A stretch of 16,613 nucleotides of DNA from Elusimicrobiota bacterium (lineage in GTDB: Bacteria > Elusimicrobiota > Elusimicrobia > UBA1565). Below are positions 9,517-16,613 of the stretch, one piece after another. The position numbers and the translations under genes were made by a program. The stretch spans positions 1 through 16,613 of the forward strand of contig JBDREN010000048.1 in NCBI GenBank assembly GCA_043819795.1, read 5' to 3'. The number at the start of each line of letters is the position of its first letter. Position 1 is the first letter of the stretch. The notes under the pieces are model-generated. The model saw only the letters and a list, made by a program, of their open reading frames with translations, was not told the DNA's origin and did no database searches.

Positions 9517-9996
9517 ATGACTAAATGGAAAACGCTCTTTCTCGGCCCCGTGGTCTACGTCGTCGGGCTCGTGCTCATGCTCGCGGCGTTGGTGTCGGCC
9601 TGGAGGCTGATGCTGTTTCTCGAGCCCTACCTGCCTTCCCTGATCGCCGCGGCCGAGGTCATAGACGACCACTGGCTCTTCTGGTTCGTAATCGCGTCCC
9701 TGCCCGCCGTGACCGCGGGCTTGCTCGCCGCGCCCCCGGAAGGACCCGGTCGCTGGGCCGCGGCCTTCGGTTCGGGACTGCTCTCGACCGCGCTCCTCGT
9801 GCTGCCGGCGGCGGCGCTGGTGTGGGTCATGCTGCCGGGCTACCTGGATCATTCCGCCGGCTCGGACACTATGATGGGCACCGCGGTCATCGGGTTTTTC
9901 GCCGCCGGGATGACCATGTCCGGTTTGGGCGGCCTATGGCGTTATAAGCGGCGTCACGCATTGAGTTCTTCGAGTTGTTTGAGTAACTCCGCCTAA
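9517..9996 (+). CDS. Hypothetical 4-TM membrane protein (159 aa)
   Basis: AGGGGG SD-like site before ATG 9517 and four hydrophobic segments. The last 15 codons are encoded by repeat B. Confidence 0.7.
   Translation: MTKWKTLFLGPVVYVVGLVLMLAALVSAWRLMLFLEPYLPSLIAAAEVIDDHWLFWFVIASLPAVTAGLLAAPPEGPGRWAAAFGSGLLSTALLVLPAAALVWVMLPGYLDHSAGSDTMMGTAVIGFFAAGMTMSGLGGLWRYKRRHALSSSSCLSNSA
9949..9993 (+). repeat. Family B repeat
   Basis: CGGCGTCACGCATTGAGTTCTTCGAGTTGTTTGAGTAACTCCGCC, 41/45 identical to 2375-2419. Confidence 0.9.
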
Positions 9997-10073
9997 CGTC
10001 TCCGGGAGGGCGCCATACTTGGCGCCACCGAATCGGCGCCGACCGGCATTCTACGACTCACCCCCCAGCAAGT

Positions 10074-10092
10074 CCCCTCTGGTTAATAAAGT
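10074..10092 (-). repeat. Headless family A fragment (CCCCTCTGGTTAATAAAGT)
   Basis: Exact 19-bp match to 13504-13522 and one mismatch to 13293-13311. Confidence 0.8.
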
Positions 10093-10110
10093 CGGAACAC
10101 ATGACGCCAT

Positions 10111-10137
10111 CTTGAAGTCACAATTTGTGACTTCAAG
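10111..10137. repeat. Perfect ORF6N-type palindrome
   Basis: CTTGAAGTCACAA-T-TTGTGACTTCAAG, 13-bp arms. Confidence 0.9.
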
Positions 10138-10401
10138 TCCCAGGGCCGCGCGGCGGTCTCCGCCCCAACTTGAAATGCCAGATTGGCGCTTTAAGTCGCG
10201 CCACTCTTCGGGCGTCAGCTGGAGCATGAAATCCGGAGGGAATCTCTCCTGGTTTCTTTTTACGGCCCGGTTCAGGGCCCCGGGCGCGACTCCGTACATG
10301 CCGGCCAGATGCCGATCCAGCAGGACTCTGCGTCCGCGTATTAGGAGGATGCGGCTCTCGATCCGCTCCACGGGGATGGGGGGTCTCGTGGGCATCTTTC
10401 C

Positions 10402-10908
10402 CTACTCCCGCATATACGAGCGGAACCCCATTCTGGTTCCGGCTTCAAGTAAATGCCGCCGGGTCTCGCTAAGCCGGGCTTGCTTGAGCCCGCGCTCAAG
10501 CTGTGCGATCTTGCGGGCCAACTCCTTATGCCCAGCAATGACCTCTCGCAGCTTAACAAAGGCCCTGACGACGAAAACGCCCACCTCGATGGCTTTGGGC
10601 GAGTTAAGGACGCTGGCCGCCATGATGGCACCGTGTTCCGTGAAGGCGAAGGGTAGGGCCTTCGCGAACTTCAGCTTCTTCAGGTGGTCGCAATTTGCGA
10701 TCACCTCGGCCTTCTCGCGGGCGGAGAGCTGAAACATGAAGTCCCCGGGGAACCGGACCCGGTTGCGCTTCACCTGCTCATTCAATCGACGCGTCGGTAC
10801 CCCATAGGCCTCCGCAAGGTCGGCGTCTATGATGACCTTTTCGCCCCGGATCAGCAAAATCCGTTGCTGAATCCCGCCGATTTTTACCAGAGCCTTTGAA
10901 GGGGCCAC
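10402..10908 (-). CDS. ORF6N-domain (KilA-N-like) DNA-binding protein
   Basis: RILLIRGEKVIIDADLAEAYGVPTRRLNEQVKRNRVRFPGDFMFQLS...VIANCDHL...LPFAFTEHGAIMAASVLNSPKAIEVGVFVVRAFVKLRE...ELARKIAQLE...RMGF. GTG 10908 is the chosen start and is uncertain. Confidence 0.88.
   Translation of the reverse strand: MAPSKALVKIGGIQQRILLIRGEKVIIDADLAEAYGVPTRRLNEQVKRNRVRFPGDFMFQLSAREKAEVIANCDHLKKLKFAKALPFAFTEHGAIMAASVLNSPKAIEVGVFVVRAFVKLREVIAGHKELARKIAQLERGLKQARLSETRRHLLEAGTRMGFRSYMRE
10682..10706. repeat. ORF6N-internal palindrome
   Basis: AGGTGGTCGCAA-T-TTGCGATCACCT, 12-bp arms with one mismatch. Encodes VIANCDH. Confidence 0.8.
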
Positions 10909-10977
10909 GTTTTCAGAATCCCTCACCGCGGCGCTCGGTGAACGCAAGCGGCATGCGGCTCGAGAGTTTGAGGGCCT

Positions 10978-11007
10978 GGAGGTGGTCACTCATTTGTGAC
11001 CACCTCC
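10978..11007. repeat. ORF6N-type palindrome upstream of the ORF6N gene
   Basis: GGAGGTGGTCAC-TCATTT-GTGACCACCTCC, 12-bp perfect arms. Arms resemble 10682-10706. Confidence 0.85.
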
Positions 11008-11061
11008 TCGCGCGCCTTCTCGGCGACCATTAGCATACGCTCATCCATCCGCCAGGTTTCT

Positions 11062-11082
11062 AAGGTGCCAATTTGGCACCTT
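11062..11082. repeat. ORF6N-type palindrome
   Basis: AAGGTGCCAA-T-TTGGCACCTT, 10-bp perfect arms. Homologous copy at 2478-2498. Confidence 0.85.
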
Positions 11083-11216
11083 TAAAGAATTATGCGCCCC
11101 GCTTGTACGAATGAGAGGCTCGATCGGTTCCCGCTGACGTCTTGCCGTTCGCGGAGGACCCGAAGATGGGATTAGATGGCTTCATGAGCCGCTGCCGGCC
11201 CGATGCCTCCAGCGAC

Positions 11217-11244
11217 TAGTTAACAAAGTTAACACCTGACGCCG
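11217..11244 (-). repeat. Family A repeat
   Basis: TAGTTAACAAAGTTAACACCTGACGCCG; 26 bp identical to 13301-13326. Confidence 0.92.
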
Positions 11245-13524: not shown

Positions 13525-13593
13525 ATCTCAGGATTGCGGGGGCGAGGCGTGGTCAAAAGTCAAACAAGTCACAAAAGTCATAGCCTGTCACCG
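13525..13593 (-). repeat. Family C repeat (CGGTGACAGGCT + 9-nt TGACTT units on the minus strand)
   Basis: 13525-13587 is 62/63 identical to 16282-16344. Confidence 0.93.
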
Positions 13594-13615: not shown

Positions 13616-16129
13616 TTAGAAAGCGGCGACCGTGACCGGAAGGACCTCGTAGGACGGCTCCCCGGTACCCAACTGTCCCATCTGGTTGTCTCCCCAGGCC
13701 CAGACGGCCCCGTCGTCCTTCAAGGCGAGCGAGTGCCGGGCCCCGCCGGCGACGGCGACGACGTCGGTCAAATCCCGCACCTGGACCGGCGCGTACCTGT
13801 GGGTAATGGTCCCGTCTCCCAGCTGGCCCAGGTGATTGTACGACCAGGTCCAGACGGTGCCGTCGGATCTGATCGCCATGGCGTGCAGCCTGCCCCGGCC
13901 GAGCGCGGTGATATCGGTCAGGTTGAGGACCTGCACCGGGCTCCATCTCTGGATGTCCGTCCCGTCGCCCGTGCGGCCGTGCTGCCCCCACGACCAGACC
14001 GTGCCGTCGGACTTCCGGGCGAAGCCGTAGTCCCAGCCGCCGGAGATCTCCTCCACATTATTCAGGCCGTCCACCGGGACCGGTCTGGCCTGGTCCCCAA
14101 GGTACCCGATCCCCAATTGGCCGTAGTCGCAGTTTCCCCAGCCCCACAGGCTACCGTCGCTCTGCTGGCCGAAGTTGTGATAATACCCGATCCCGATCAT
14201 CGCGATATCGCCGAGGTAGCCGCTTCCGCCCGGCGCCAGGACCTGGACCGGCGTATGCCTGTCGGTCCGGGTGCCGTCCCCCAGCGTGGCGTAGCGATTA
14301 TATCCCCAGTTCCAGACGGCCCCGTCGGATTTGAGCGCGACCGAATGATAATCCCCGCCGCCCATCGCGACGACGCCGCTTAAACCGGGCAGTTGGACCG
14401 GGGAATGTCGATTGGTGGTGGTCCCGTCGCCCACTTGCCCCCGGGTGTTCTGTCCCCAAGCCCATACGGAGCCGTCGGCCTTCGCCGCGAAAGCATGATT
14501 GGTGCCGGTGGCTAGGATGGCCGGATGGGACAGCCACGACAGCTGGACCGGCGTGAACCGGTTCTCGTTCGTGCCGTCGCCCAATTGCCCCTGGGTGTTC
14601 TGCCCCCAGCCCCAGACGGAGCCGTCGGTCTTGATGGCGAGCGAGAAATGATCTCCGCTGCGGATGGCGGCGACATCGTCGAGGCCGGGGATCCGGACGG
14701 GGAGGACCTTGGCCCCGCTCTGGCCGTTGCCCAGCTGGCCCCAGAGGTTGTTTCCCCATGCGAGGATGCCGCCGTCCTCTCCGATGGCGAGCGTATGGTA
14801 GCTGCCGGCGGCGAGCGCCGCGGCGTTGTCCACGCCGGGCACGGGGACCGGGACGCGGCGCCTCTTGGTCGTGCCGTCGCCCAGCTGCCCGTAGTTGCTC
14901 CTTCCCCATGTCCAGACGCCGCCGGCGCCGTCCAGGGCCGCGGAATGGACCGTCCCCGCGGCGATGGCGGCGACGCCCGGGAGGCCGTGCGGCTGGATGG
15001 GAGTGTTCCTGTCATCGGACGAGCCGTCGCCCAGAGCGCCCTGTGCGTTTTCGCCCCACGCCCATACGGTGCCGTCCGCTCTTAGGGCCAGGGAATGCTG
15101 GTCTCCGCAGGCGATGGAGACGATATCGGTCAGACCCGCGACCTGGACCGGAACATATCTGTCGGTGAAGGTCCCGTCGCCCAATTGTCCGCTTCTGTTC
15201 AAGCCCCACGCCCATACGGTGCCGTCCGCCTTGAGGGCCAGGGAGTGCGATTGCCCGGCCGCCACGGCCACGGCGTTGTCCAGACCGGCCACTTGGACCG
15301 GGACGTCGCTGCCGGCCGTCGAGCCGTCGCCGAGCTGCCCCCGCTGGTTGTCTCCCCAGGCCCAGACCGAGCCGTCGGCGGCCGTGGCGAGGGAGTGCAG
15401 GCGCCCCGCGGCGACTCCGACGGCATTGGAGAGGTTGGCCACACGCACCGGCACGTAGCTGGCGTCATCGGACCTGTCGCCCAATTGGCCCTGGTAGTTG
15501 TATCCCCACGCCCAGGCCGTGCCGTCGGCCTCGACGGCGAGGGAATGGTTGCGCCCGGCCGAGAACGCGGTGACCTCCGACAAGCCGCTGACCTGCACCG
15601 GCGTGACCGAAAAATCAATAGAGTCCGCTCCCAGCTGCCCCTCGCGCCCGTATCCCCAGGCCCACAGCGTGCCGTCGGACTTAAGCGCGAGGGTGAACTG
15701 CTCTCCGCCGGAGAGCGCGGTGACCTCGTTGGTGAGTATCCCGATAAGCGCGCTGGCGTCCTCCTGAGCCACCTTCTTCCCGGCCTGCGCGTTCAGGGCG
15801 CTCACAAAAGCTCCCAGGATGTCCGCCCCGGCCTTGGCCATATTCCCGCCGTGCTTGGCGTCGCCGGATTGGTAATCCGCCTCGGCGGTCTCCAGCTTCT
15901 CCCGGGCGGCCCGCAGCTTCGCGTCCAGGCTCCCGGCGGTCCCCTTGGGAATGTCCATGGAGCCCAGGGCGTCGATGAGGCGGTCCACTCTCTGGCGCAG
16001 CCGGACGACCCCCTGTTGATCCTGCGGCGGATCGACGGACTCGGTCGCGCCCATGCCGAGCACGGTCAATAAAAGTCCGGCGGACAGCCCAAGAACGATC
16101 AGGGACTTCCCCGTCTTCATCTTCTTCAT
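13616..16129 (-). CDS. Secreted RCC1-repeat protein (14 repeats, two 7-bladed propellers) with N-terminal helical FIMAH-like domain
   Basis: Signal peptide, helical SLDAKLRAAREKL...AFVSALNAQAGKKV segment, then 14 HSLAxxxDGxVWxWGxNxxGQLGDG..PVQV repeats. GGAGG SD site. Confidence 0.93.
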   Translation of the reverse strand: MKKMKTGKSLIVLGLSAGLLLTVLGMGATESVDPPQDQQGVVRLRQRVDRLIDALGSMDIPKGTAGSLDAKLRAAREKLETAEADYQSGDAKHGGNMAKAGADILGAFVSALNAQAGKKVAQEDASALIGILTNEVTALSGGEQFTLALKSDGTLWAWGYGREGQLGADSIDFSVTPVQVSGLSEVTAFSAGRNHSLAVEADGTAWAWGYNYQGQLGDRSDDASYVPVRVANLSNAVGVAAGRLHSLATAADGSVWAWGDNQRGQLGDGSTAGSDVPVQVAGLDNAVAVAAGQSHSLALKADGTVWAWGLNRSGQLGDGTFTDRYVPVQVAGLTDIVSIACGDQHSLALRADGTVWAWGENAQGALGDGSSDDRNTPIQPHGLPGVAAIAAGTVHSAALDGAGGVWTWGRSNYGQLGDGTTKRRRVPVPVPGVDNAAALAAGSYHTLAIGEDGGILAWGNNLWGQLGNGQSGAKVLPVRIPGLDDVAAIRSGDHFSLAIKTDGSVWGWGQNTQGQLGDGTNENRFTPVQLSWLSHPAILATGTNHAFAAKADGSVWAWGQNTRGQVGDGTTTNRHSPVQLPGLSGVVAMGGGDYHSVALKSDGAVWNWGYNRYATLGDGTRTDRHTPVQVLAPGGSGYLGDIAMIGIGYYHNFGQQSDGSLWGWGNCDYGQLGIGYLGDQARPVPVDGLNNVEEISGGWDYGFARKSDGTVWSWGQHGRTGDGTDIQRWSPVQVLNLTDITALGRGRLHAMAIRSDGTVWTWSYNHLGQLGDGTITHRYAPVQVRDLTDVVAVAGGARHSLALKDDGAVWAWGDNQMGQLGTGEPSYEVLPVTVAAF

Positions 16130-16253: not shown

Positions 16254-16345
16254 CGGTGTCAGGCTATGACTTTTGTGACTTATCTCAGGATTGCGGCGGC
16301 GAGGCGTGGTCAAAAGTCAAACAAGTCACAAAAGTCATAGCCTGA
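16254..16345. repeat. Inverted doublet of family C repeats (REPIN-like)
   Basis: Perfect 23-bp IR: TCAGGCTATGACTTTTGTGACTT (16259-16281) and AAGTCACAAAAGTCATAGCCTGA (16323-16345). Confidence 0.9.
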
Positions 16346-16613
16346 TAATCATATAGAGATCCCCTCCCACAGGTTGTATTGTTTCGTTGCAAGACGAACA
16401 TTCCAACCCAAGGAGGGGACTGATGAAATTATACGTAGGAATCGACCTGCATTCCAACAACAGCGTGCTGGTAATCTTGGATGAACATGATCGCATCGTA
16501 TACGAGCGGCGTCTACGAAATGAACTGCCGCTTATTTTGACGGAGCTGGCGCCGTACCGAGAGAAGGTCGAGGCGATAGCCGTGGAGTCAACGTACAATT
16601 GGTACTGGCTCGT
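16346..16613 (+). mobile_element. IS110-family insertion sequence, left end (runs off the window)
   Basis: Similarity to repeat C stops abruptly at CCTG(A), the sequence becomes AT-richer, and a transposase starts about 77 nt later. The exact end is uncertain by 1-2 nt. Confidence 0.85.
16423..16613 (+). CDS. IS110-family transposase, N-terminal DEDD RuvC-like domain (partial; absent from the ORF track)
   Basis: MKLYVGIDLHSNNSVLVILDEHDRIVYERRLRNELPLILTELAPYREKVEAIAVESTYNWYWL contains the GIDLH and AVEST motifs. AAGGAGGGG SD site. Confidence 0.93.
   Translation, partial: MKLYVGIDLHSNNSVLVILDEHDRIVYERRLRNELPLILTELAPYREKVEAIAVESTYNWYWL

Follow-up and report, generated by a model that had tools for sequence, protein, structure and literature searches.

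An insertion sequence (IS) of the IS110 family, with an IS1111-type layout, lies in the outer end of a TIRtron-type repeat in the genome of an Elusimicrobiota bacterium, and it is likely steered there by a guide RNA predicted in its 3' non-coding end. We assign this reading a probability of about 0.9. The element has a readable anatomy and occupies a fixed site in a fixed orientation, the repeat is linked to Y1 transposase genes, and the guide segments match the target and change with it.

The insertion junction at the end of contig C48

The window analyzed here is the whole of contig C48 (16,613 nucleotides) of an assembly (G000; 4.99 Mb, 241 contigs, 66.8% GC), and this contig stops 269 nt inside the IS. 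The sequence AAGTCACAAAAGTCATAGCCTGA at 16323-16345 is followed by TAATCATATAGAGATCCCCTCCC and then by an open reading frame (ORF) that runs from the ATG at 16423 to the contig end. Upstream of the IS is a target mini-element of 92 nt (16254..16345; inverted repeat I9, DNA fold -27.0 kcal/mol), composed of two inward-facing TIRtron-type arms and a short spacer. The left arm (16255..16281, plus strand) is intact, with the head GGTGTCAGGC, and presents a free target on the minus strand. The right arm (16323..16344, minus strand) is broken by the IS ahead of its terminal CACC and forms the left half of the IS target (…ATAGCC-TG); it ends in GCCTGA, after which come TAATCATATAGAGATCCCC, a ribosome-binding site and the ORF. 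Uninterrupted heads in the window read TAGCCTG-TCACCG (13581-13593) and GCCTGA-CACCG (reverse complement of 16254-16270), and intact units near-identical to the mini-element were found on C224, C90, and C26.

The triplet TGA (16343..16345, plus strand) is common to the target and both IS junctions. At the 47 loci for which both ends are available, the junction on the left was YGA in all 47, and the third base of the one on the right differed in 13. The aligned junctions thus point to TG as the most likely core, with the A at 16345 most likely opening the IS itself. The initial annotation had placed the IS at 16323..16613, which holds from 16345 onward, the segment 16323-16344 being host repeat.

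The short left end of the IS (16345..16422, plus strand, defined from the sequence) contains the left subterminal inverted repeat TAGAGATCCCC (16354..16364, plus strand), which pairs with GGGGACCTCTA in the right end over 11 bp with one mismatch. By direct inspection, this repeat can be extended by CAT at 16350-16352 (plus strand) over a one-base bulge. A predicted -10 half of a junction promoter in the circular form, GATAAT (16344-16349, plus strand), and the ribosome-binding site AGGAGG (16411-16416, plus strand) are also in this end. The following ORF (16423..16613, plus strand) encodes codons 1-63 of an IS110-family DEDD transposase, including D8 and E55, and is ended by the contig end. 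The 63-residue fragment by itself gave no Pfam match; all 63 residues were identical to the start of the full 339-aa transposase on C90, which matches PF01548, PF02371, and NF033542, and this bore out the family assignment made from the window. A single silent difference was seen at 16473, where the window has A and the C90 copy and the sequencing runs X1-X3 have G.

Given a metagenome-type assembly of 241 contigs and a contig that ends inside the IS, the junction might be an artefact produced by a mis-join of two repeats. However, C90 includes a whole copy of the element flanked on both sides, and a contig from an independent run of a second study (X2) spans 16311-16466 with zero differences, covering 35 letters of the repeat and 121 of the IS. 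The junction is therefore not an assembly join, and we regard a mis-join as refuted short of raw reads and as having next to no probability. The X2 contig may originate in another copy of the same arm. Run X1 yielded a 1705-nt contig that begins at 16323 and extends beyond the window end. The surrounding locus of the C48 copy was absent from all 31 relative genomes examined; its right flank is absent from the assembly, and two exact-pattern scans of metagenome contigs for it gave nothing.

The target repeat and its occupied copies

Searches of the genome with a strict arm motif gave 60 matches, with none expected, and a relaxed motif identified 123 arms where about 2 are expected by chance; thus, the repeat family is as abundant as had been presumed from the window. 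The target of the IS variant found here (variant A), RG[CT]CTGACAC[CT]G, occurs 35 times, 33 of them ahead of an AT-rich arm body, against 0 expected from a 5th-order Markov simulation. The pattern for a second variant (variant B), which is shorter and less specific, gave 134 matches, 66 in an arm-like context, with 76 expected. Some arms stand alone, others form pairs of about 30-150 nt, and others again flank Y1 transposase genes, pointing inward. Other arm heads in the window lie at 2376+, 9330+, 9950+, 10108-, 11243-, 13325-, and 16222+, and a free near-copy of the 16254-16345 unit with the variant head GCCTG-TCACCG is located at 13525..13593 (minus strand; D10, I4).

Clear arms were present on both sides of four of the five full-length Y1 genes with a helix-turn-helix (HTH) region (C102, C198, C96, and C140), and the proteins of these four contain YIHLNP, which corresponds to the Y---NP motif. 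The fifth gene, on C72, has degenerate arms and is without the Tyr motif. The Y1 proteins matched PF01797 above the cut-off, and two of the three scanned reached 78.7 and 78.3 bits with NF047646, just below the cut-off of 80. The C-terminal HTH matches were weak and below the cut-off in all three (HTH_23, E 0.004; HTH_38, E 0.002; Bac_DnaA_C, E 1.6e-6). In TIRtron/TIRYT elements, a Y1 transposase gene lies between inward-facing repeats that are dispersed as dimers (PMC3733652), and TnpA-Y1 subclass 2.1 is defined by the Y---NP motif plus a C-terminal HTH (bioRxiv 10.1101/279083); the elements found here share these features. From this resemblance of sequence and arrangement, the repeat is identified as the terminal inverted repeats of TIRtron/TIRYT elements together with their mini-elements.

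The arm heads also resemble GGGGWSAS, which is common to only some of the terminal inverted repeats described in PMC3733652. This motif was exact at the repeat end in 5 of 123 arms, most being one position off (GGTG/GGCG), and the heads differ from the published ones in that they are mostly GGTGTCAG or GGCGTCAG, with GGGGTCAG in 5/123. Two other identities for the repeat were rejected. The arms, linked to a transposase, do not have the form of the short tagged palindromes of a CGTC-REP. A classic GTAG/CGTC REP is a self-complementary unit of 20-40 bp with a terminal tag; a single arm here is not a self-complementary stem and instead has its partner in a second arm or flanks a Y1 gene. As for an attC cassette array, no integrase was detected among the 12 window proteins scanned.

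Several other features adjoin the repeat arms. Two ORF6N-domain ORFs (10054-10395 and 10405-10989, minus strand) lie between repeat arms at 9950-11243 of the window, and an ORF6N-like non-coding remnant at about 2416-2501 adjoins another arm. An 837-aa RCC1-repeat protein (13616-16129, minus strand) is flanked by the repeat units 13525-13593 and 16254-16345, and the protein and its flanking units may have moved or recombined together. The Y1 protein with a DnaA-type HTH on C72 (12685-13632), in which the HUH motif as well as the arms are degenerate, is possibly a domesticated, inactive TIRYT, as far as its sequence indicates.

We identified 8 left ends and 6 right ends of the IS in the genome. 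All eight left ends follow a repeat-arm head ending in …CTG-A, in one orientation, with the transposase gene pointing away from the repeat. The initial annotation had described a precise insertion into the repeat head, had expected the head to resume at the right flank, and had proposed a check of other copies; on all three points, the genome-wide junctions agreed. The head resumes at 6 of 6 right ends (CACCG three times, CACTG, CGCCG, and CGCCT), and none of the eight left junctions lies in an unrelated target. Variant A accounts for four left ends (C48, C63, C90, and C174) and four right ends (C53, C55, C90, and C142). The three unpaired right ends of this variant (C53, C55, and C142) all begin with CACCG, and one of them should belong to the C48 copy. 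On C90, the IS occupies what is left of a TIRtron, in its downstream arm.

It is conceivable that the IS inserted only once or twice and that the Y1 transposase, or duplication, then spread it as a passenger of the repeat, as a transposase is associated with the repeat family and ATAGCCTG is common to three variant-A left flanks. Against such spread, arm bodies and spacers differ at all eight sites, which include several arm subfamilies, and beyond the head all six right flanks become dissimilar after a few bases. We consider it largely refuted and very improbable.

Tandem duplications of 10-15 nt (head plus outer flank) were observed at four of the six IS right flanks (C53:131-175, C55:135-179, C90:49884-49928, and the C194 right end) compared with 7 of the 122 arms that are free of the IS (small n; Fisher p 4e-4). 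Head duplications of the same kind occurred at 5 of 62 homolog right flanks, with 0.2 expected. They may be the footprint of one of the two enzymes, that of the IS or Y1.

The full-length element and its predicted guide RNA

The complete copy on C90 (48371-49883) lies between two TGA triplets and consists of a 77-nt left end, a gene for a 339-aa DEDD transposase, and a 416-nt 3' non-coding end, with subterminal inverted repeats. The transposase matched PF01548 (E 3.7e-14), PF02371 (E 8.3e-15), and NF033542 (180.7 bits, cut-off 140). Its residues D8, E55, D93, and D96 were located by position, and Ser259, in RWSN, aligns with the serine region of IS621 and ISCro4. The short left end, which the initial annotation had called typical of the IS1111 group, goes together with a long 3' non-coding region, as in the IS1111-type layout. 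Insertion is specific for site and orientation and produces no true target duplication, the repeated part being a core of only 2-3 nt (8/8 left and 6/6 right). The subterminal inverted repeats, at 11 bp, compare with about 11-13 bp in the IS1111 group, and the terminal extensions are 6 (GATAAT) and 3 (AGT) if the repeats are lengthened by CAT/ATG across the bulge, or else 8 and 5, the group values being 7 (or 6) bp on the left and 3 bp on the right. The C-terminal motif, ARCVSSSRWSN, is not the GL-P----S(t)G carried by IS1111 proteins (PMC11187229). Because this motif is missing, the element is more safely described as IS110 family with an IS1111-type layout than as an established core member of IS1111.

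The variants A and B encode proteins that are 86% identical over 319 aa. One variant-B copy (C142:10482-10797) is cut off at the end of the transposase gene, without the 3' non-coding end, and adjoins an intact arm pair.

Neither the window nor the full element matched any Rfam family. In an alignment of 11 3' ends, a first hairpin was common to all, with compensatory changes in the stem and a variable internal loop, and the guide segments are located in this unpaired loop. Variant A has AACGGUGUUG and then AGUCUGA, so that guide segments are present where the initial annotation had expected them; AACGGUGUUG pairs with the top strand TGACACCGTT with two wobbles, and AGUCUGA has the same sense as AGCCTGA with one wobble. 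Variant B has AAGGGCGUUG and then ACGUCUGA. With wobbles, the former fits TGACACCG/AGCCTGA heads and the latter TGACGCC/ACRCCTGA heads. The variants differ in both guide segments, and the own guide scored best at 7 of 8 left junctions, with 1 tie, and at 5 of 6 right junctions; at C194, a variant-B right junction, the variant-A guide was slightly better (6.5 vs 6.0). This tracking of the target by the guide supports the earlier proposal that the IS is programmed against the repeat head. Both guides require G-U/G-T wobbles, and part of the guide was paired internally in a single-sequence fold.

To score guide-target agreement, we used the five non-core positions of each guide at 81 loci, namely C90 and the best 80 of 578 homolog matches (45 hairpins parsed, 36 loci without a parsed hairpin). 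The top-strand guide reached 4.04 of 5, compared with 2.42 after shuffling (32 pairs with 13 distinct guides), and the bottom-strand guide reached 3.85, compared with 2.60 (34 pairs with 17 distinct guides). For each guide, 0 of 10000 shuffles reached the observed score, a count that overstates significance because the homologs are related. Read out of register, the top-strand guide gave 2.29 vs 2.17, and the positive result was obtained once this guide had been aligned anew to the TGG/CCA stem. A second motif, UGAUG(A/G)GUG-NN, has a variable base that agrees with the right end in 46/46 elements, which is largely a clade split; its agreement with the first target base was 40/46, compared with 28 when shuffled. 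Such agreement is called handshake pairing in PMC11208158. In the predicted guide, the match to the top strand lies 5' of that to the bottom strand, at the sequence level only, and IS1111 seekRNAs likewise have the top-strand match first (PMC11187229). In one homolog (L014:1010-1465), the 3' end apparently contains two tandem guide hairpins with differing loops.

The fixed site could alternatively reflect structure, if the IS recognizes a folded hairpin or repeat-bound proteins and the RNA match merely fine-tunes the choice or is incidental. At six of the eight occupied arms, a partner arm 68-91 nt away makes the site foldable, and folded sites (attC and REP) are among the known IS1111 targets (PMC11187229). 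On the other hand, two occupied arms (C90 and the second C120 copy) have no partner within 100 nt, and the siblings L011, L012, L013, and L201 carry changed guides and lie in sites that match those guides, unlike the TIRtron arms here. We consider structure-directed targeting improbable and favor steering by the predicted guide RNA.

By analogy with known members of the family, excision of the IS would yield a circle, and the junction of its ends would create a promoter, predicted as TTGACG, 18 nt, GATAAT. The TTGA was invariant among 11 aligned ends. A promoter scan of the linear element found zero forward promoters, as expected if the promoter arises only at the circle junction. The transcript from this promoter would yield both the transposase and the seek/bridge RNA. 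In the loop of the first hairpin, AACGGUGUUG would pair with the top strand to the right of the core and AGUCUGA with the bottom strand to its left. The second motif, AUGAGUG-AC, would pair both with the right end of the IS and with the bases that begin the target, in the manner of the handshake guides of IS621, and the DEDD/Ser site would recombine at TG. An intergenic repeat of 120 copies would provide many landing sites outside genes, and the landing of the IS would break the tip of the occupied repeat.

Homologs and known systems

The nearest homologs (best 80 of 578 matches) were mostly in records titled Elusimicrobia. Among 44 distinct sites, 29 read CTG[AGT]C[CA]C[CT], and these are scattered over several phyla on a midpoint-rooted tree of full-length proteins (42 rows, close homologs only, without ISfinder reference elements). 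In the relative G001, a GGGAC-TG-TCCC repeat holds a sibling IS with a longer left subterminal inverted repeat region; this sibling sits in the center of the GGGACTGTCCC palindrome at 7/7 left and 6/6 right junctions (L103-L109 and L113-L122), and two of its copies lie directly upstream of Y1 transposase genes. Moreover, L073 adjoins the 5' end of a Y1 gene, the right end of the IS at L143 is close to a Y1 gene, and in G031 a Y1 gene is flanked by arms that match the local IS target. A Y1-like match within the 1.5-kb flanks was found at only 5 of 80 homolog loci, none of the Y1 loci examined in G032 (1) and G035 (4) has an arm matching the local IS target, and close siblings have other targets (L011-L013, L020, and L201). 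One of these (L020:1300-3000), 71% identical, sits at the tail end of a REP-like palindrome of CGTC type, and its guides have changed so as to fit this site. TIRtron targeting thus appears, from the loci compared, to be common in this branch but not universal.

Like ISEc11, ISKpn4, and ISPa11 (PMC11187229), the element combines a DEDD transposase and a short left end with a long non-coding 3' end, and it also shares with them subterminal inverted repeats, a fixed site and orientation, a top-strand match 5' of the bottom-strand match, natural reprogramming between close relatives, and a repeat as target. In that report, ISPa11 targets REPs and ISKpn4 targets attC. The present element differs from these seekRNA elements in its TIRtron-head target, the missing GL-P----S(t)G, and a 3' end of 416 nt, and it is described from sequence only. 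IS621, which targets REPs (PMC11208160), likewise has an RNA matching both target and donor, a short core, handshake-like bases, and a repeat of REP type as target (PMC11208160, PMC11208158); in contrast, its RNA is in the left end with the reversed match order (PMC11208160), and its protein similarity to the present transposase is distant (E 1e-11). ISGme8/ISGme9 lie at a fixed distance from paired repeats in Geobacter metallireducens (PMC2700814), where the repeats are read as regulator binding sites, with no TIRtron link and no guide proposed in the text concerned.

The closest named branch is that of ISGsu4 (ISGsu4, ISGsu5, ISShfr7, and ISShwo5). A 56%-identical plasmid match is labelled 'IS110-like element ISGsu4 family transposase', and the ISGsu4 protein has the motifs GIDLH and WYWL in common with the element here, as compared by eye only. 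ISGsu4 itself is reported inserted inside a gene (PMC11077965). Among the rows listed in the tree table of Durrant (PMC11208160), two have the NWYWL motif, neither with an ISfinder name. No element with matching ends turned up when the supplements to PMC11208160 and PMC11187229 were searched for the motifs; their target logos are pictures, in which a match is possible. The main text of PMC3733652 never mentions IS110 or IS1111, and bioRxiv 10.1101/279083 names IS110 once, in another context. In the literature searched, outside which lie most subscription papers and ISfinder, there was no report of IS110/IS1111 targeting of TIRtron ends, and the terms TIRYT or TIRtron appear in only two of the papers.

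IS4321/IS5075, which Partridge and Hall are said to have described in 2003, are reportedly elements of IS1111 type that aim for the terminal inverted repeats found in Tn21-family transposons. They likewise target another mobile element's terminal inverted repeats, here those of HUH/Y1 TIRtrons and of their mini-elements. That IS110/IS1111 elements target repeats, and the ends of other elements, under RNA guidance is known already, so that a single insertion would not surprise a specialist. The value of the finding is modest and practical: the target class is named as TIRtron ends, one genome offers a natural pair of elements, 86% identical, whose guides fit two subfamilies of the repeat, and the guide, donor, and handshake positions of a diverged transposase branch are easy to read.

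The targets in this branch comprise those of the two variants here, that of the GGGACTGTCCC sibling in G001, and CTGACCCC-type sites in Pseudomonadota, Nitrospirota, Acidobacteriota, Myxococcota, and Planctomycetota. We tentatively propose, at somewhat below even odds, that this is a little-catalogued IS110/IS1111-type branch in several phyla that is specialized on TIRtron tips, with a guide that is rewritten to follow the repeat subfamilies. If so, the branch would be an RNA-guided parasite of HUH elements, and its cut site would mark the putative functional tip of their repeats.
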